Assembly (NCBI RefSeq): GCF_004010195.1 | Contig: NC_057751.1 | Coordinates: 8,747,611 to 8,811,610 of the forward strand | Direction: 5' to 3' | DNA from: Chiloscyllium plagiosum | Lineage: Eukaryota | DNA: 64,000 bases | Part shown: positions 25,626 through 63,636 of the stretch, one piece after another | How the letters are laid out: the number at the start of each line of letters is the position of its first letter | How positions within the stretch are numbered: position 1 is the stretch's first letter | Notes under the pieces: model-generated | Told to the model about the DNA's origin: nothing | Seen by the model: only the letters and a program-made list of their open reading frames with translations | Databases searched by the model: none | Translations under genes and position numbers: made by a program

Positions 25626-25910
25626 ATTAGATTTCCTACAGTGTGGAAACAGACCATTTAGCCCCACAAGTCCACACCAACCCTCCGAAGACTAACCCAC
25701 CCAGACCCATTTCTTTCTGATGGGCAATTTAGCACAGCCAATTCACTTGACCTGCACATCTTTAGACAGTGGGAGGGAACAGAGCACCCAGAGGAAACCC
25801 ACGCAGACATGGGGAGAGTGTGCAAACTCCACACAGTCACCCGAGGCTGAAATTGAATCTGAGTCCCTATTGCTGTGAGGCTGCAGTTCTTGCCACTGAC
25901 CACTGTGCCG
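25626..25910 (-). mobile_element. HE1-like V-SINE
   Basis: Homologous to 53540-53866. Confidence 0.85.
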
Positions 25911-26064
25911 TTATTAGACTGACATTTATTCTCAACAAAGCAACTATGGAGTGGAACTGAGTTGGTAGGAAATGTGATGGAGCCAAAGACACAAGTTTCC
26001 ATTTTTCCAATGCTTAAGTTGAGAAAATTGAACTCACCAAAAACTGGAAGTCAGATGACTGACT

Positions 26065-26333
26065 CCATGGTCAGCATCACAGACTCAGGTTCGATTGCAG
26101 CCTTGGGTGACTGCAGAGTTTGCACTTTTTCCACATGCCTGCGTGGGTTTACCCTGGTTGCTTTGGTTTCCTACCACAGTCCAAAAATGTGCATGTTAGG
26201 TGGATTGGCCATGGTAAATGTGGGACACTGACATAGGGTATGGTGGGGGGGGGCTGGGTCAGGTGTTCTTGCGAGCATCAGTGCAGAATTCATGGGCTGA
26301 ATGGTCTCTTTCCACACTGTCGGGATTCTATGA
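26065..26333 (+). mobile_element. HE1-like V-SINE
   Basis: B box GGTTCGATTGC, V domain gagtttgcac...ccacagtccaaa, tail gggattctatga. Confidence 0.8.
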
Positions 26334-31610: not shown

Positions 31611-31975
31611 ACTTCAACATGAAAATCTGTCTGACTACCTGTTAAAGCTCATGAAGCAAGTTGTTCAGAAGATACAGAAGGTGGTTGCACAATAACATTG
31701 TCATCATAGACAACAGATTCGAAACAATGAAATTTCCCAACTTATTGCCCAGTGCAACATTGTAATTCAGCTTTTAATTTGCCACAATTTATTATCTCTA
31801 CCAAAATATATATAGAAAATACAGAGTATACAATATAAGCAACTGGCTCATAAGTTAACACGCACAAAGAATAAATGGTTTGAATACGGAGTAGTATAGT
31901 TACATGGTGCATTTTTAGTTATTTTACAATTCTACACTGAAGCTTTCGTAACTGTTCTGGACCATGCCATACTGC

Positions 31976-32149
31976 AGGGAGAAAGTGAGGACTGCAGATG
32001 CTGGAGGTCAGAGCTGAAAAATGTATTGCTGGAAAAGCGCAGCAGGTCAGGCAGCATCCAAGGAGCAGGAGAATCAACGTTTCGGGCACAAGCCCTTCTT
32101 CAGGATTCCTGAAGAAGGGCTTATGCCCGAAATGTCGATTCTCCTGCTA
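31976..32149. mobile_element. Fold-back PLE-type element, family A, with hammerhead motifs
   Basis: TSD catgccatactgc (31963-75 and 32150-62). 42-bp inverted arms (32064-32105 and 32107-32148). Confidence 0.85.
32071..32108 (-). ncRNA. Minimal type I hammerhead ribozyme motif (intact core)
   Basis: GAAUC-CUGAAGA-A-GGGC-UUGU-GCCC-GAAA-CG-UU/GAUUC. Stem I GAAUC:GAUUC, stem II 4 bp, palindromic ACGU stem III. Confidence 0.75.
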
Positions 32150-32719
32150 CATGCCATACTGCTCCAACATTGTTAAGCAGGAAGCTCAGACAGTAACTTT
32201 GCAATTTGTTTCGGGAAATGAATAGTGAAAATTACCCAGAGTAAGTTAGCTAGGTGACAACCAGGTTTTAGAACAAAGATTTGTACACAAAATTACATAA
32301 TGAAACAACAGAATAAAGAACACCTACATAACTCAGTCTATCCAAACTAGACTTCAATATGATGTTCTGAATATACACAACAGTTCCAATAAACAAACTC
32401 ATTATACAGTATAAATGAAACAAAGGCTAACAGATCGAAGTTAGAAGGGCAGAAGGGAAGAATCGAGCAGCCTGTTTCCACACAGACTACTACTGAACTC
32501 CAAGATAAAGTTTCAACTGAACTGCTCAGCTGGAGAGCTAGCCACACCCCCTCGACTTCCACAGATTAATTCTCAAACCATAAAGCTTTGGCCTAAACTC
32601 TCATCTGTTTACGAATAAACAAAAGGCCTTTCACTTCTGTACCAAACCAGTCAATTCAGAGCCAGAGTGATTTACAACCCCTCTGAAAAAAAACCAAGGA
32701 CAGTATCCTTGAGAAATGG

Positions 32720-33092
32720 TTTGGAGATGCCCGTGTTGGACTCGGATGGACAAAGTTAAAAATCACAACACCAGGTTATAGTCTAACAGGTTTATTTGGA
32801 AGCACGAGCTTTTGGAGCACTGCTCCTTCATCAGGTGGTTGTGAAGTATAAGATCGTAAGACAATTTATAGCACAAGTTCAGTGTGAGGTAACTGAAATT
32901 ACATATTGAACAAACAATCCTGGTCATTTTCAATATATAATTTCAGTAATATCACACTGTCAACTTTTTGCTATAAATTCTGTATCTTACAATCTTATAC
33001 TCCACAACTATATTAAGGACGAGAAGCGCTCTGAAAGCTCATGCTTTCAAGTAAACCTGTTTGACTATAACCTGGTGCTGCGTGATTTTAAA
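32720..33092. mobile_element. Fold-back PLE element, family B (same terminus as 2150-2300)
   Basis: Inverted arms of about 150 bp around about 32920. Degenerate TSD cc[t/g]tgagaaat[g/a]g (32707-19 and 33093-105). Minus-strand CAC-CTGATGA-A-GGAGC-AGT-GCTCC-aAAAGCTC-GTG (G12 lost). Confidence 0.8.
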
Positions 33093-37290: not shown

Positions 37291-40200
37291 TGGATAAGAA
37301 TGGATGGCAACAAGAACCATAACTTCTTACCAGCTGTCGTGAACAAAGACAATACTAACTCTACATTTGAAATGCATGAGGCATGGTGTCAACAATTGCA
37401 GTACAGTTCTTGTTTCAAAGATTCTGAAATGATCAATTCTAAAGCTTTCTGGTCAATAAAACAGTTATCATTACAACAATTGCAACACATTTTCCACTTT
37501 ATTTCTCAATATTTGCTTCTGAAACAGGTTTCACTTGCAATTCCAGTACTTTAGAGCACAGAGGATGATAATATACAGTTTTGCTGCACTGAACCTGTAA
37601 GAAGGTTTAATGAAAAACTGTGTTTATCTTAGACAACTCTGTGGAGAACAGCACCCAAAGTAGTTTCTAACTTAGTATCTGTTATTCCCTTCCATTCTTA
37701 CCAATTGCACAGACTGGTTTTTGCAGTACTCCTGGGTTGTGTATGTCACCTACGCATAGGCAAAATAACACCCAAGTCAATTACTGGCTGATAAACCTGG
37801 CACATTCAATCCCAAATCCCAAAGAAGACATGAATCAGCCCATTTGAAAGTATAGAATGAGTACAGTGCTTTGTATTTAAAAAATATAAATTTTAAAATT
37901 ATAGAAAACATATTTGTACTTTATGAACACTATTCCAGTTGAGAGTATTTGATTCATGACTGAAATTGACAGGACATAAGATCCTATTCCATCTATCAGT
38001 GAAGGGCAGGAATATTTTCAGGAGCTACACTATTCTGCACCCGAGACATTGCAGTCTTGTCTCCCTTAATCAGAGATACAATATTAACATTAATACAAAC
38101 AATGACAATCATGAAATTTTTTACAATTGCCAAGTTTTTTGAGACTTTTGAAGATCAGCATATCAAATAACCTTACTGCCTTGTTCAGAAATCTCACAGA
38201 CGCTAAAATCATGCTGTCTCCCTCATGAGCTGTAACAAGCATGATTTCCAATTGGGACAACATTCTCAACAGGTCTCTTTTTCAAACACATTCAGTTGCA
38301 CCAAGTGATCAAATAATTTGAAGTAGTCAAGATGAGTGTTCACAAAAAAAATTTTTAAACTTGTCTTACCTCTACTCAGTTTAAGAGACCTGTTATTTCA
38401 CCACGTTACCAACTTCACCATTTAGGCTGTACAGCTTACTTCACTACTTCTGATGAGACACCAATTTATCCTATCATCAGGATAGTTGCATGTGGTTATA
38501 ACATTTAATCTTGTTAATTATAGATTAATGTACAAAGTCCAAGTCATTGTAACACCTCTGGTAATCTCTCGTGTTCGTTGACGAGTGCTCAAGCAAATCC
38601 AAGAAAATTAAACCCTTTGAATCGTCCCTTGAAGGGAATCTTTGAACCAAAGTCAGACATATGATGAACATCAAGGTTTTCCAATTGTTCCATGGTCTGA
38701 ATGAGATATGTATTGAAAGCTGAAATGAAACTGAAGACATCATGAACATTATCTGCTCCTGTTGGATCAAATGGACCATGCAGTATTGATCAATCACATA
38801 CGCACCTCATGACCCCGACTTTTTCTTGGGGGCAGGGAAGAGGAACCAAAGCAGCTGTTACTGGCAAAAGGAAGTTGATTGTTAAGTAGTCACTAGTCGG
38901 TGACGAGTCACCAAATCGGGAAACCAATGATAGATGTTTTTTGGATGCCAACAAGAATCCAATTGGCGCTTAGCTAAACAAACAACTTTGAGCTGTGAAC
39001 ACGTCAGAATGTGAGCGGGTAATCAGTTCTTTGTTCTGAGGTCAAAGCTCATGATCAATTTATACTTCCTGCACCAGTTTTTGTATGCGGTGACTTTTAA
39101 CTGGGAACTCAGAGACTTGCTCAAAATGTACTAGCCATTTTGGGTCTCTTCCAAACCAACGATCAAAGTGAGACAGGGGCACCTGAAGCCAAGTTCTGGC
39201 ATGTGTGATCACATTAACAACGATACCTGGGCACCAGGAGAATTGAACTGTTTTCCTGTGTCCTTGCTGGGGACCATACCTCACCCAAAACACTGGAGAA
39301 AGTGCACAGGTGCATAAGCCAAATCCAAATTTTGTTTCCTTCCTGACATGCATGTATATTGAGGGATGAACATGTGAAAAGCAGGCTGCAGGGGAAACCT
39401 GGACAGTAGTCTAACTGGTTGCCTTGAGACTTTGCAGATTGGTCCTTAAAGCCACAATATTACTAACAACTGTGCCGCAATAACTTTCCCAAACAATGTA
39501 TAAATTTCAAGGTGAAATTGAAGCAAACAATCTTTCTCTTTGCATAAACATGAACAAGAAAAGGTCAGTCAGCTCCGTTAATTTTCCCACCATTCAATTT
39601 GATTGTAGCTGATCTATTTATTCGTTCATTCAGGCTGTTTCATTAACTTGAATAAATCCGCAGGACCAGATCAGGTATACCCTAGAACTCTGTGGGAAGT
39701 GATAGGTGAGGCGAGACTGGAGGTTAGCTAGCGTGGTGCCACTATTTAAAAAAGGGGTGTAAGGAAATCCAGGGAACTATAGGCTTGTAAACCTGACATC
39801 AATGGTGGGCAAGTTGTCGGAGGGAAACCTTTGGGACAGTATTTACATGTATTTGGAAAAGCAGGGACAGATTAAGGATAGTCAACATGGCTTTGTGCGT
39901 AGGAAATCATGTCTCATGAACTTGAGTGAGTATTTGAAGAATTAACAAAGAGGATTGATGAGGGCACAGCTGTGGACGTGATCTATATGGACTTCAGTCA
40001 GACTTTGAATAAGGTTCCCCATGGGAGACTGGTTACCAAGGTTAGAGCACATGGAATACAGGCATAACTGGCCATTTGGATAAGGTAGAGACAGAAGGTG
40101 GTGGTGGAGGGTTGCTTTTCAGACTGCAGGCCTGTGACAAGGAGTGCCACAAGGATCGGTGCTGGGTCCACTGCTTTTCATCATTTATATACATCATTTG

Positions 40201-40733
40201 GATGTGAACATCGGAGGTATATCTATTAAGTTTGTAAATGATACCAAAATTGGAGGTGTAGTGGACAGCGAAGGTTACCTCAGATTACAACGGGATCTCT
40301 TATCATATGGGCCAATGGGCTGAGGAGTGGCAGATGGACTTTCATTTAGATAAATATGAGGTGCTGCATTTCAGAAAGGCAAATCAAGGCAGGACTTATA
40401 TACTTAACGGTAAGGTCCTCGGGAATGTTGCTGAACAAAGACCTTGGGGTGCAGTATCATCGTTCCTTGAAAGTGGAGTTGCAGATGGATAGGATAGTGA
40501 AGCCAGTGTTTGGTATGCTTTCCTTTATTGGTCAGCGCATTGACTAGAGGAGTGGAGAGGTCATGTTGTAACTGTACAGGACACTGGTTAGGCCACTTTT
40601 GGAATACTGCATGCAACCTTGTTCTACCTCCTATCAGGAGGAGGATGTGAAACTTGAAAGGGTTCAGAAAAGATTTACAAGGATGTTGCCAGGGTTGGAG
40701 ACTTTGAGCTCTGTGGAGAGGTTTTCCCTGGAG

Positions 40734-40953
40734 AAAGTGAGGACTGCAGATGCTGGAGATCAGAGCTTAAAAATGTGTTGCTGGAAAAGCGCAGCAGGTC
40801 AGGCAGCATCCAAGGAGAAGGAGAATCGACGTTTTGGGCATAAGCCCTTCTTCAGGAATCCTGAAGAAGGGCTTATGCCCGAAACGTCGATTCGCCTTCT
40901 CCTTGGACGCTGCCTGACCTGCTGCGCTTTTCCAGCAACACATTTTTAAGCTC
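40734..40953. mobile_element. Fold-back PLE-type element, family A: 95-bp near-perfect inverted repeat
   Basis: Arms 40763-40857 and 40859-40953 with 3 mismatches and a 1-nt spacer. TSD ggttttccctggag (40720-33 and 40954-67) inside the CR1. Confidence 0.9.
40856..40893 (+). ncRNA. Minimal type I hammerhead ribozyme motif (intact core, GUC site)
   Basis: GAAUC-CUGAAGA-A-GGGC-UUAU-GCCC-GAAA-CG-UC/GAUUC; predicted cleavage after 40888. Confidence 0.8.
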
Positions 40954-42332
40954 GGTTTTCCCTGGAGCATTGGAAGCTGAGAGGTGACCTTATAAAGGTT
41001 TATAAAACGATGAGGGGCATGGATAGAGAAGGTCTTTTCCCTGGGGTGGGGGAGTCCAGAATTAGAAGGCATAGGTTTTGGGTGAGGGGGAAAGGTTCCA
41101 AAGGGACCTAAGGGGCAACTTTTTCATGCAAAGGGGATGCATGAACAGAATGAGCTGCCAAAGGAAGTGATGGAGGTTGGAACTTATACAACATTTAAAA
41201 GGCATCAAGATGGGTATATGAATAAGAAGGGCTTAAAGGAATATGGGCCAAGTGCTGGCAAATGGGACTAGTTTAATTTAACATATCTGGTCAGCATAGC
41301 TGAGTTGGACTGAAGGTTCTGTTTCCATGCTGTACATCTCTATGACTCTATGATTCTTACTTGTCATAGACTTGCATACATTTTCCAATTAACCTCACCT
41401 CAACAGATTTTTGTGGTATGCAGAGAGTCCTGTTGGAGTTCAGGCATCCCAGGTTTCATTGCCTAGCATTTCCAAACTAAGACAACATTTGCTTGAAACT
41501 TTCAAGATTTGAAGAGGAACCCAGGAAGATATTGCAGAATCTGCTTCTTGTATCAGACTCTGCAAGTTAGAGCCAGATATTGAGAGAGAAGTTATCAAAG
41601 TACTGGTTCATAAATACATCAAATGTGGTAGTCAGTTTTGCTATAGCACAGTCGAACCATTCTCGTGCAATCCCACTTTATAAAATCATGTAATAGCAGC
41701 ACCATTTAAACTAATGGAGACAAAATTGCATTATAACCAACACGCACTCATGAAAGTGTCCCCTATTTGTCAATCGTGTTGAAGCATTTTTGTGTTTTTG
41801 AAGTGTGCATTTTAGCAGAGCGACCTGTACAAATTTATAACTCAACAAAATGTTATCAACACAGAAATGATCTGAAAGAGCATCCATAGCACTTAACCTG
41901 CAATGCATTACAAGGTTATCTCAAGGTAAAATGTGGCTCAAACCCAAAAGTAGGTCCAAAAATTGATTATAAAACATATTTCAGGGATGACAGTCAATCC
42001 GGCATTCGTAAATACCACATTAATTGGCGTGCATGTGTTCTGTTGATCTTTGTTTCAGGACGAGTGCTGGCACACAGCACATGATTTGACACCCTTATTT
42101 TGAATTTAACTGACCTTCTCTTGAAATAGTAAAATGAAATCAGTTTTACAAAAACTGCTGATGGATTACTATGACAATCTTGATTTCATTGTTGAGATGT
42201 GCCAACAAACTTCAAATTTCTTTCTATAGAGACACCCCTAAAAATCATGATACAATCCAGAGAGGACAACTGTCCTAACTTCCAAAAGACAAGGTACCAA
42301 TGAAATACAGTAGTCCAACACTGTACAAGATT

Positions 42333-42778
42333 CAAAGTTTGTGAGAAGATTTGTAGTTCGGGTGATCGTTGTTGTGGTTCTGTTCACCGAGCTGGGAATT
42401 TGTGTTTCGTCCCCTGTCCAGGTGACATCCTCAGTGCTTGGGAGCCTCCTGTGAAGCACTTCTGTGATGTTTCCTCCGACATTTATAGTGGTTTGAATCT
42501 GCCGCTTCCGATTGTCAGTTCCAGCTGTCCGTTGCAGTGGTCGGTATATTGGGTCCAGGTTGATGTGCTTATTGATTGAATCTGTGGATGAGTGCCATGC
42601 CTCTAGCAATTCCCTGGCTATGGAGAGGCATGGCACTCATCCACAGATTAAATCAAATGTCGGAGGAAACACCACAGAAGCGCTTCACAGGAGGCTCCCA
42701 AGCAGTGAGGATGTCACCTAGACAGGGGACGAAACGTCTGCAACACAAATTCCCAGCTCGGCGAACAGATCCACAACA
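42333..42778. mobile_element. Fold-back PLE element, family C, with a GIY-YIG remnant
   Basis: Minus strand reads ARELLEAWHSSTDSINKHINLDPIYRPL. Inverted arms; TSD actgt[a/c]caagatt (42320-32 and 42779-91). Hammerhead-like gTGAGGA-T-GTCACCT..AGGGGAC-GAAACGTC-TGC at about 42705-42741. Confidence 0.85.
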
Positions 42779-42789
42779 ACTGTCCAAGA

Positions 42790-43400
42790 TTGGTCCTCAT
42801 TCCAAAGTTACAATAGCCCATGTTTGGTACTGGAGCCATTACCTTTATGGCAAGGAGCTTACAAAGTAGTACGAAGGAGATTTTGCTGCAATTGTGCACA
42901 GCCTTAGTGAAACAGCATCTGGGATTTTGTTTGCAATTTTAAAGTATATATACTCAGTAAAGATTCAATCACATTTAATATAGCAACATTCTCTGAGCAG
43001 AGATTGGGTGTCTGGGCCTAATGAGCCCACAGTTTTCAACAACGAGGTGATGTCATTCAATCATACAAAGTTATCACAAAGATCAACAGGGTAGACAAAT
43101 ACACTATGTTACCCTTCGCTGAGAGATTTTGAATCAGCAACAGTCTCAGTAAACTACTACGCCACTTCAAATTAGTAATAAGAATTTCTTCATTTGGGGG
43201 TGGGAAACCTTTGGAATTCTCCCCTCGGCAGGCTATGCAGTTCAGCTGTCAAGTATATTCAGAAAAAAGATTGATAGGTTTGCATATACTACAGTCATCA
43301 AGGGATTCAAAGATAGTGCAAGAAATTCAACCATCAATGAAGTAAATGATGGAGGAGGCCTAAATGTTCAAAGAGGCATATTCCAGCTCCTAATTCTCAT
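42790..43400 (+). mobile_element. Degenerate CR1 3' region
   Basis: RT C-terminal and 3'UTR remnants. Confidence 0.5.
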
Positions 43401-56239: not shown

Positions 56240-56375
56240 AGCCAATTCCGAAGAAGGGTCACTACTGGACCAGAAATGTTAAGTCTCATTTTTCTCCACA
56301 GCTGCTGCCAGACCTGCTGAATTTTTCTGGCAATTTCTGTTACCATTTCCAATTTCCAACATCCACAATTCTCTT
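56240..56375 (+). mobile_element. PLE-type short element, family D, with degenerate hammerhead
   Basis: CcGAAGA-A-GGGTC..GACCa-GAAAtGTT followed by ctgctgccagacctgctga; related to 63000-63184. Confidence 0.65.
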
Positions 56376-57807
56376 CACTTTTTAATGAAGCCATAAACCC
56401 TAGTCAAAATACCGAAGACTAAAACCACAGAATTGTTTTAGATAATTTGCAAACATTCATAATTATATGATGCTGCAGTACTCCAGGTGAATAACTTGTT
56501 CCATTCCATCATTGTGAAATTATCATTGCATTTTTCCAAGTGCCGATATTGTAGTCACGCAAATTAACACAAAAAATATATTTTGACGAGTAAATAATTG
56601 ATCAGTATAGAATAATCAAGATCAAACTGGTCACATGTTTGAAGAATTGAGAAACAAATGGTACCAATTTCAGATGATGACACATAAGGATGAGTGCAGA
56701 AAAATCCTTGTGATGCATCAAGTGATTAGGATCTGAAATGCACCATGGCTGATTTCGAAAGGTTCAACCACGGCTTTTAAAAGAAAATTCAATATGCACC
56801 TGCAAAAAAAAACTGCAGAGCTAAAATGACAAATGCGAGAATTCACAGAGTATGTCCAAGGGAGCCTGAACAGAGAAAAAAGGTCGAAGGTCCTATAATC
56901 ATCCCAAGATAGCATACCACTTCCATCAGGTCAGATTTCTCTCAGTGTTCCATTCATACACAACAATCTCGGACTTCTCTAAGAAGTAAAACTGTACAAG
57001 AGCAAATTCATCCAGAACAAAGATGGGATGGAGCAAGTTTGCGATGGGCAGAAGAGATTTTAAGGATTTGTTGAACAGAAAGGGACTTGGCAAGATGGCA
57101 GTGTTCACAGGCATTTGAGTGGAATGAGTCCCCATCGATCACCAAGCACAGAAAACATAACCATTTGTCGGTGGCCTCAATGAAGGACACAGAGCTAAGG
57201 GAGGGCAGAATGATGATTTTTAACACTTGGGAAATCGTGGGGCCAAGGGATCAAAGGGTATGAGAAGGAAATAGGAACAGGTTTGAGGTGGATGCTCAGC
57301 TGAAATCATATTGAACAGAGGAGCTTGATGGGCTGAACAGCCTACTCCAATGTTTCCATGAGAGAAAAAGATGAACGCATTGGTTTGGGGATAGAGACAG
57401 TGGGAAGCTTGGCATGATTACAAGTTTGAAGATAATGAAACACAGGACGTGAAGCTCCAGCAATGTTGTGTCACTGTGTAGTGCAGTAATCAAACTCAGG
57501 ACCATCAACACTGCAAACTCAAGCAGTGTATGTTACACACAGCCATCAAGGAGGCCTCATGTCATGTAATGCAGAAAATAATCAGAAAATAACAGCAAAA
57601 AACAATTTGGTGCCTGTCAGGCCCATGAATAGCTAGTCAGATTCCAACCACTCCTTGCAAACAGACTGCTTAAATCATAGTGGTTACCGAAAAATTACAG
57701 TTCGATGCTGTTAGCTTGCGATTTAAATACTTCAGTCTGATTGGTGCGAATGGAGCATTTGCAAAACACAATTCACTGAAGCATAAAGGTCTGAGTAAGA
57801 GACTTAC

Positions 57808-62878: not shown

Positions 62879-63636
62879 TACTATGGACCAAACCCCCTGA
62901 AAATAAGAAGATAGCCGAGAGCCTAACTTGTTCTTATTTTAAAGGCAAGCATTCCAGATGCAATTTGATTGGTCAAACTATCAGTCTTACCACTTCTTTG
63001 ATACAAATTGCTGGTAAAGCTCAGCAGGTCTAGCAGCATCTGTGGTCAGAAATCAGATAACATTTCGGATCAGAGGAAGAGTCACTCGACCCAAAACGTT
63101 AAGTCTGATTTCTCTCCAAGATGCTGCTGAGTTTTTCCAGCAATTGCTGCTTTTGTTTGTAATTCACAGCATTTGCAGTTCTAGCAGTTCTTACACTTTC
63201 TTTATATACTATAGCAAAAATACAACAAAGATGAAAATAGAATAACTTAACACAAAAATAGATGCGCCAATGTAGTCACATCCCATAAACATACCCTTGG
63301 CAAAGGCAAATTCAGTCAACTAGATTGCCTCACATGCAATCCTCCAGTCCAGGAGGAAAAAGATCAAGAGAAAACTCCGATAGTGTGTGCTGCAGGTCAA
63401 TGTACTGCAGCAACTATGATTGAAAAATGAAAACTAAAAGCCCTGGTTCTATGGGAGCTACATTGCAGCCATCCAGGCTGCTTCTATTGTTCTTTAAATA
63501 GACTTTATATAAAACCCCAACGCCCTGACAAGCCACTTACTTTTTTGGATTCAAATTGACAGCTCAGCACCAATGCCCGGAAACATCAAGAAAAATCAGC
63601 ACAAAATATACCTCTTAAGCCCATAGTATTATCACA
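62879..63636. mobile_element. Solo LTR (related family) with a nested fold-back PLE
   Basis: tactatggacc...ttatcaca; perfect 4-bp TSD agtg (62875-78 and 63637-40). Confidence 0.7.
63000..63184. mobile_element. Fold-back PLE-type element, family D
   Basis: Inverted arms aattgctgg..ctcagcag and ctgctgag..ccagcaatt. Degenerate hammerhead CaGAGGA-A-GaGTC-ACTC-GACCC-aAAACGTT (63071-63100). Degenerate flanking duplication. Confidence 0.7.

Follow-up and report, generated by a model that had tools for sequence, protein, structure and literature searches.

A 220-nt palindromic insert in a shark LINE is probably a dead end stump of a Penelope-like element (PLE) bearing a minimal hammerhead motif

Results

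Features of the locus

The window, which here means the whole 64-kb stretch of DNA analysed, carries at 40734-40953 an insert of 220 nt within a decayed LINE (Table 1). The reading frame of this host LINE, which we take to be of CR1 type from its motif, was continuous across the insertion site; the first-pass annotation had placed the insert in a CR1, and the insertion itself was borne out. Pfam gave no match on the 54-aa piece of the host LINE tested. The nearest gene pieces were a last exon matching PP2A B55 and, near 35.7 kb, a GC-rich first exon that is presumably BNIP3-like. Compared with other copies, the host LINE copy lacked a stretch left of the duplication, at 40715-40721 (loose-end consensus behind 40700); since the right duplication matches the left one, this suggests that the deletion preceded the insertion. 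Further inverted-repeat pairs were noted at 32766-33080 (96 nt at 81%) and 25780-26165 (50 nt at 82%).

Table 1. Positions of the insert, its parts, and related features in the window
Feature	Positions	Strand	Remarks
Host LINE, decayed, 5'-truncated	39650..41357	+	left boundary approximate; from translation, with a depth step and loose ends behind 41353-41357
Left target-site duplication	40720..40733		14 bp as read; each of the 4 runs has loose ends before 40730
One-sided 33-nt tail, fixed 3' end of the element	40730..40762	-	unpaired; without counterpart in the right arm
Left arm, tail-bearing pseudo-LTR copy	40763..40857	-	repeat comparison; 121/128 identity to the second copy over 40730-40857
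Head-to-head junction	40857..40859		centre A40858; 3-nt loop when folded; left arm has parent letters through 40859
Right arm, inverted tail-less pseudo-LTR copy	40859..40953	+	stops exactly at the tail boundary 40762/40763
Right target-site duplication	40954..40967		exact direct-repeat match
Minimal type I hammerhead, core intact	40856..40893	+	predicted cut after C40888
Minimal hammerhead, G12>A (40835)	40823..40860	-	parent-type stem I with a U.U mismatch
Second insertion of this family	31963..32162		13-bp duplication; tail and fixed left end as in the insert; T at the centre in place of A; 42-bp right arm
Neighbouring PLE of a different family	42321..42791	-	coding-frame end, hammerhead-like motif, inverted tail-less copy, ~35-nt one-sided tail

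Anatomy of the insert

The two 95-bp arms (40763-40857 and 40859-40953) were centred on A40858 and differed at 3 of 95 pairs (40835/40881, 40822/40894, and 40808/40908), in full agreement with the annotation. The insert was flanked by an exact 14-bp direct repeat (40720-40733 and 40954-40967), with a chance of approximately 1e-9 for one fixed place. The first 29 nt of the insert had no pairing partner in the right arm, as judged from the self-comparison and the fold. Two minority variants, 40818/40898 and 40768/40948, were present in both arms; therefore, the arms derive from one source.

As RNA, the insert was predicted to fold at -188.2 kcal/mol (z -27), and none of 200 shuffles reached equal stability. 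A long dsRNA would be expected if the insert is read through, as had been proposed; the cruciform proposed along with it is possible, at a calculated cost of approximately +33 kcal/mol relative to linear DNA. The annotated 1-nt spacer holds as the single centre base A40858, but the loop of the folded form is predicted to be 3 nt, because a 1-nt loop cannot fold. The claim that the element has no coding capacity was right insofar as no RT is encoded by the insert, although a short frame does start at an ATG in loop II.

Fixed end, tail, and junctions in related sequences

Three DNA runs and one RNA run were aligned to 39400-41700. Loose ends before 40730 were present in 259, 262, and 254 contigs of the three DNA runs and in 555 RNA reads, and the flanks beyond 40730 agreed at only 0.35-0.45. 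Therefore, 40730 is a fixed element end found at many unrelated sites. It follows that the left duplication ends in 4 nt (40730-40733) that also belong to the element's own end, so that the annotated 14-bp duplication stands as an exact repeat but amounts to 10-14 bp as a target-site duplication. The 4-nt overlap is likely a primer-template match with the target. The second copy has the identical 4 nt lying outside its duplication and shows no such match.

A joint from 40762 back to 40730, found in all three DNA runs (7, 3, and 1 contigs), delimits a 33-nt unit whose inner edge coincides with the stop of the right arm. The same joint represents a tandem doubling of the 33-nt tail, which perhaps reflects the successive use of two RT start sites or an insertion into an existing pseudo-LTR (pLTR).

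Moreover, 112 RNA reads ran past 40859 into a non-palindromic parent sequence without the mirror arm. The continuation of this parent beyond the hammerhead front had no match within the 64-kb window. Among the 15 joints listed (of 1473), 11 connected the hammerhead-front arm to a shortened mirror arm in an asymmetric head-to-head arrangement. Three of the joints listed led from inside the tail (40755, 40759, and 40760) to the hammerhead-front arm, the far ends of these contigs not being included. None of the 15 was an empty site, which was counted against the best explanation. The summed contig depth in run X1, which is not a copy number, was 4.9-6.8 million over the element versus 13-35 over the unique flank. 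Variant shares at 40835 were left out, being biased by two-arm mapping.

The element end was also seen abutting the 3' end of the host LINE family, at the joints from 41357 to 40730 (46, 50, and 22 contigs) and from 41351 to 40770 (24, 8, and 12 contigs), which suggests that the element preferentially inserts into LINE tails or the short repeats belonging to them.

Other copies and relatives

The two copies of this family in the window differ from one another in both centre and right end. The parent's centre letters are on the tail arm in the 40734-40953 copy and on the mirror arm in the 31963-32162 copy. Only one of the four family arms in the window kept the full consensus core; the other three showed G12>A, C15.2>U, or C17>U, every change at a CpG. 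Older, diverged relatives of the element end (76-88% over 33-42 nt) were observed at 56250-56380 and 63008-63040, the former retaining a decayed hammerhead-like front.

The neighbour at 42321-42791 is flanked by a 12-bp duplication with 1 mismatch and bears the hammerhead-like motif in both arms, with a 9-nt deletion at the cut site in the left and C3>G in the right. Its frame shared 88% protein identity with P0004, a protein with an RT match. When Pfam was run on 8 proteins, RVT_1 was hit in P0004 alone (E 3.3e-6; 27.4 bits, below the 29.6 cut-off), and a GIY-YIG-like motif was seen in P0004 by eye. This link to an RT plus GIY-YIG-type protein was seen for the neighbouring family only; the neighbour is a positive control for the insertion pattern, not proof for the family under study.

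A solo tail-less copy of the family forms residues 557-594 of P0007, the C-terminus of predicted FUBP3 isoforms of a bamboo shark. This captured copy is flanked by repeated LYLIA peptides resembling a target duplication and, by eye at the protein level, appears to end at the tail boundary between short repeats. The protein matches of both repeats, this family and the neighbouring one, name bamboo sharks, which points to a carpet shark as the host. The viral, metagenome, and prokaryote collections returned 0 loci for two exact patterns and appear to contain no such DNA.

Identity of the insert

We consider the insert probably a dead stump of an abundant shark PLE, made of two short hammerhead-bearing pLTR ends lying head to head, one of them tailed. 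Word searches and a full HMMER search with the translations of this family yielded no RT-endonuclease frame for it; PLE membership therefore rests on anatomy. A word search for a linked PLE frame gave 0 of 10 candidates, and another gave 2 of 15, which were two isoforms of a single host gene that has captured a copy of the element. A single HMMER match, an uncharacterised tandem-repeat protein, was judged spurious as a linked PLE frame.

The anatomy points to PLE in several respects: a pLTR with a minimal hammerhead; an inverted, head-to-head pLTR copy; a tail on one end only (33 nt at 40730-40762, within the 30-40 nt of PLEs); a fixed 3' end at 40730 with a variable 5' side; and short variable duplications of 10-14 and 13 bp. 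In addition, the element end lies 112 nt from the ATG in stem-loop II. The structure is of a known kind: the end of a PLE, left as a stub, together with the minimal hammerhead that such ends usually carry. Our literature search found no paper on this shark family, which may already be catalogued in Repbase or Dfam.

Two other assignments were rejected. MITEs and fold-back DNA transposons have inverted repeats reaching both termini and a duplication of fixed length. Here, 29-33 nt of one end are unpaired, the second copy is strongly asymmetric, and the duplication length varies. A non-LTR retrozyme does not fit either, as the copies form an inverted pair and no long direct repeat occurs in 38-44 kb.

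Origin of the palindrome

Within the PLE-stub reading, we propose that the palindrome arose by the joining of two cDNAs. The PLE protein would nick both target strands, 10-14 nt apart, and each nicked 3' end would prime a cDNA on the element RNA. One cDNA would start at an outer site, with the tail included and the 4-nt target match assisting; the other would start at an inner site, so that the tail is left out. Both cDNAs would reach the RNA 5' end just before the hammerhead and be joined via a 1-nt A:T overlap. On the PLE-stub reading, the palindrome is an insertion scar, and the hammerhead is a parental inheritance with no job at this locus. The joining of two cDNAs would explain the centres of both copies, as well as why one arm borders the host at the outer edge of the tail and the other at its inner edge. 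We put its chances against snap-back and a palindromic master at about even, because it depends on one base in one copy and on the three tail-internal joints; the centre argument involves one base in one of the two copies, and one A>T substitution would look the same.

The alternative closest to it concerns mechanism only and leaves the PLE-stub identity untouched. A single cDNA may have folded back over the 3-nt loop and copied itself, or self-priming may have occurred on an antisense template (PMC3846280). Such snap-back accounts for the minority variants common to both arms, and it fits the centre of the 40734-40953 copy exactly, with parent letters on the tail arm and a 3-nt loop. However, it leaves the second copy unexplained, whose mirror arm has parent letters absent from its tail arm, and the tail-internal joints to the hammerhead-front arm among those listed also speak against it, the far ends not being included. 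We regard snap-back as rather unlikely, though deserving serious consideration.

A further possibility is that the palindrome replicates in its own right as a non-autonomous element, or that it was copied from a master PLE whose 5' end is palindromic, with transcription running through both arms and mobilisation in trans. The two palindromic copies with an identical fixed left end within 9 kb, as well as the very high summed depth over the element, speak for it; pLTRs alone are mobilised in trans in rotifers (PMC3846280), and 5' truncation of a copy from such a master could have given the second copy. Nevertheless, the two copies differ in centre and right end, the second having a different centre base and a right arm of 42 bp. 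The asymmetry of 11 of the 15 joints listed (of 1473) and the 112 RNA reads that continue into parent sequence without a mirror arm are likewise at odds with it, and a -188 kcal/mol hairpin would be a poor RT template and bury the ribozyme. We therefore consider this possibility improbable, and the discrete non-autonomous unit of the first-pass annotation is not supported by the two copies in the window and the joints listed.

If two-cDNA joining is correct, shark mini-palindromes in general may record PLE twin priming, with a dimeric protein, outer and inner RT starts, and a 1-nt-overlap join of the cDNAs. We offer this generalisation tentatively and give it somewhat less than an even chance. 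Twin priming, if true, would leave a random flip/flop centre and, as a side effect, one strand but not the other would have a perfect 5-bp stem I. It would also explain the inverted-pLTR-plus-tail structure that is called undefined in PMC8557442.

The hammerhead motif

A minimal-hammerhead descriptor found 3 sites in the window, all belonging to this element family, and 0 in 50 Markov controls. In the plus-strand motif, the core runs from C3 (40861) to A9 (40867), followed by an extra A (40868), stem II (40869-72/40877-80), G12-A14 (40881-83), A15.1 (40884), U16.1 (40887), and C17 (40888); stem I is 5 bp (40856-60/40889-93). The base-by-base check thus agreed with the annotated set of catalytic residues, the 5-bp stem I, and the extra A after A9. 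Among the marks of minimal hammerheads, the core, the extra nucleotide between 9 and 10.1, the G10.1-C11.1 pair, the palindromic 15.2-16.2, and a helix I of 4-5 bp are all present, whereas helix II has 4 bp and not the 7-8 bp of the schistosome consensus. The plus-strand stem I is perfect because the junction supplies its 5' strand. On the minus strand, the G12>A at a CpG was found at 40835 as annotated, and the U.U mismatch in stem I comes in addition. The Rfam search returned 3 matches, all to miRNA hairpin models and far under the gathering scores, and no hammerhead family; accordingly, the motif is neither named nor excluded by Rfam.

The folding predictions depended on where the RNA starts. 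In the first-pass test RNA 40850-40900, the CUGA box was predicted to lie inside a 7-bp centre hairpin, with a stem I probability of 0.001; for RNAs starting at 40850 or further upstream, the box was buried and the probability was below 0.001. For starts at 40854-40856, it rose to 0.85-0.93. A parent-type arm with the U.U mismatch gave 0.18. In read-through RNA, the hammerhead is probably folded shut.

It had been argued that the ribozyme would need dimerisation through ACGU. This agrees with published PLE hammerheads (PMC4209133), by analogy with which the motif, having no helix III, could only work as a dimer. In nearest-neighbour terms, such a strand-swapped dimer would be feasible but not favoured (-21.5, whereas two monomers reach -22.6 and a non-catalytic dimer -25.2).

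A plus-strand hammerhead that is active or under selection at this locus would be consistent with the intact core, the perfect stem I, and the open fold of RNAs starting at 40854-40856. Against it stand the closed fold of all longer upstream starts, the dimer energies, by which the strand-swapped form is no better than two monomers and the non-catalytic dimer wins, and, as a weak test, a single poly(A) run (2% of it read) without any pile-up of read ends along the stretch. Furthermore, an intact core is expected anyway at approximately 2% decay per arm, and the PLE hammerhead of Anolis is protein-dependent and dispensable for insertion in vitro (PMC11167929). We consider this very improbable; with the CUGA box predicted to be buried in the test RNA, the working ribozyme implied by the first-pass annotation is not supported.

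Finally, a fold-back chimera of the assembly is extremely improbable: among the contigs listed, none spans the palindrome, but the exact 14-bp duplication, the 3 arm differences, the host frame continuing across the site, the right end at a family boundary, and two further similarly built insertions in the window all argue against an artefact.

Age of the insert

The arms differ by 3.2% (95% CI 0.7-9.0). Flank divergence was 4.0% (20/495) for organism B and 3.7-4.6% for organism C; in organism A the flank was identical over 291 and 371 nt. With a shark mutation rate of 7e-10 per generation (PMC10587355), the arm age would be approximately 23 million generations (4.7-64); the upper bound given in that source lowers it to 11 million (2.3-32). 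CpG decay and arm conversion blur the estimate. The left junction of the host LINE was present in organisms B and C; among the contigs and joints listed, none showed the insertion site either filled or empty. The claim of recent mobilisation is not supported, since the arm divergence is close to the 4.0% flank divergence from a relative and amounts to millions of generations. The insert postdates its host LINE, yet it is not recent, and the label 'young' is doubtful.

Discussion

Taken as a single locus, the insert matters little: it is an old remnant of a repeat that is abundant, and its ribozyme motif belongs to a class already described. It is of use as a clean specimen of a PLE insertion scar, which bears on the origin of the inverted ends and the one-sided tail. 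Counts over short copies in sharks whose duplications are intact could tell snap-back from twin priming and from palindromic masters. Sharks would, moreover, hold many near-perfect palindromes with 100-bp arms, a potential source of cruciforms and dsRNA.

Comparison with known systems

Animal non-LTR retrozymes, which are present in the sole cartilaginous fish sampled, resemble the insert in being non-coding and hammerhead-bearing and in their proposed PLE pLTR origin (bioRxiv 10.64898/2026.07.22.740005). They are, however, head-to-tail tandem repeats, whereas the insert is an inverted pair, which rules out dimerisation of its two motifs in cis on a single strand.

The minimal hammerheads of PLE pLTRs are marked by an extra base after A9, G10.1-C11.1, and a palindromic 15.2-16.2 (PMC4209133); their monomers are described as inactive and their dimers as of low activity, and opposite-strand pairs lie 100-700 bp apart (PMC4209133; review PMC6765202). 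The metazoan motifs are like those of the insert in the full core, the lack of helix III, the palindromic ACGU, and the 4-5-bp helix I. The insert differs in its shorter helix II, the 7-8 bp being typical but not required by the relaxed descriptor, and in that its two motifs overlap at their 5' edges. The part of the supplementary files of PMC4209133 that was covered contains no shark name.

The protein of PAc, the Poseidon element of Anolis carolinensis, extends both strands. Its RT starts at two internal sites that bound the tail; these lie 111-118 nt into the ORF, which itself starts at stem II (PMC11167929). The insert is similar in having an ATG at hammerhead stem II, an element end approximately 112 nt downstream, and two end points bounding a tail. 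The likeness is one of layout; PAc in vitro primes without target homology, whereas the insert at 40734-40953 has a 4-nt match.

The insert also resembles EN+ PLE insertions, for which an inverted head-to-head pLTR, palindromic junctions, a 30-40-nt tail that is often one-ended, and a short duplication are described (PMC3846280; PMC8557442). The insert differs in consisting of only two end copies without a coding body, and its duplication of 10-14 bp compares to 8-10 bp in the examples from rotifers, in which pLTRs alone suffice for mobilisation in trans (PMC3846280). It shares with the EN+ PLE architecture, as presented in these sources and in PMC8969392, the inverted end copies, the palindromic junction, the fixed 3' end, the extension on one arm alone, and the short duplication.
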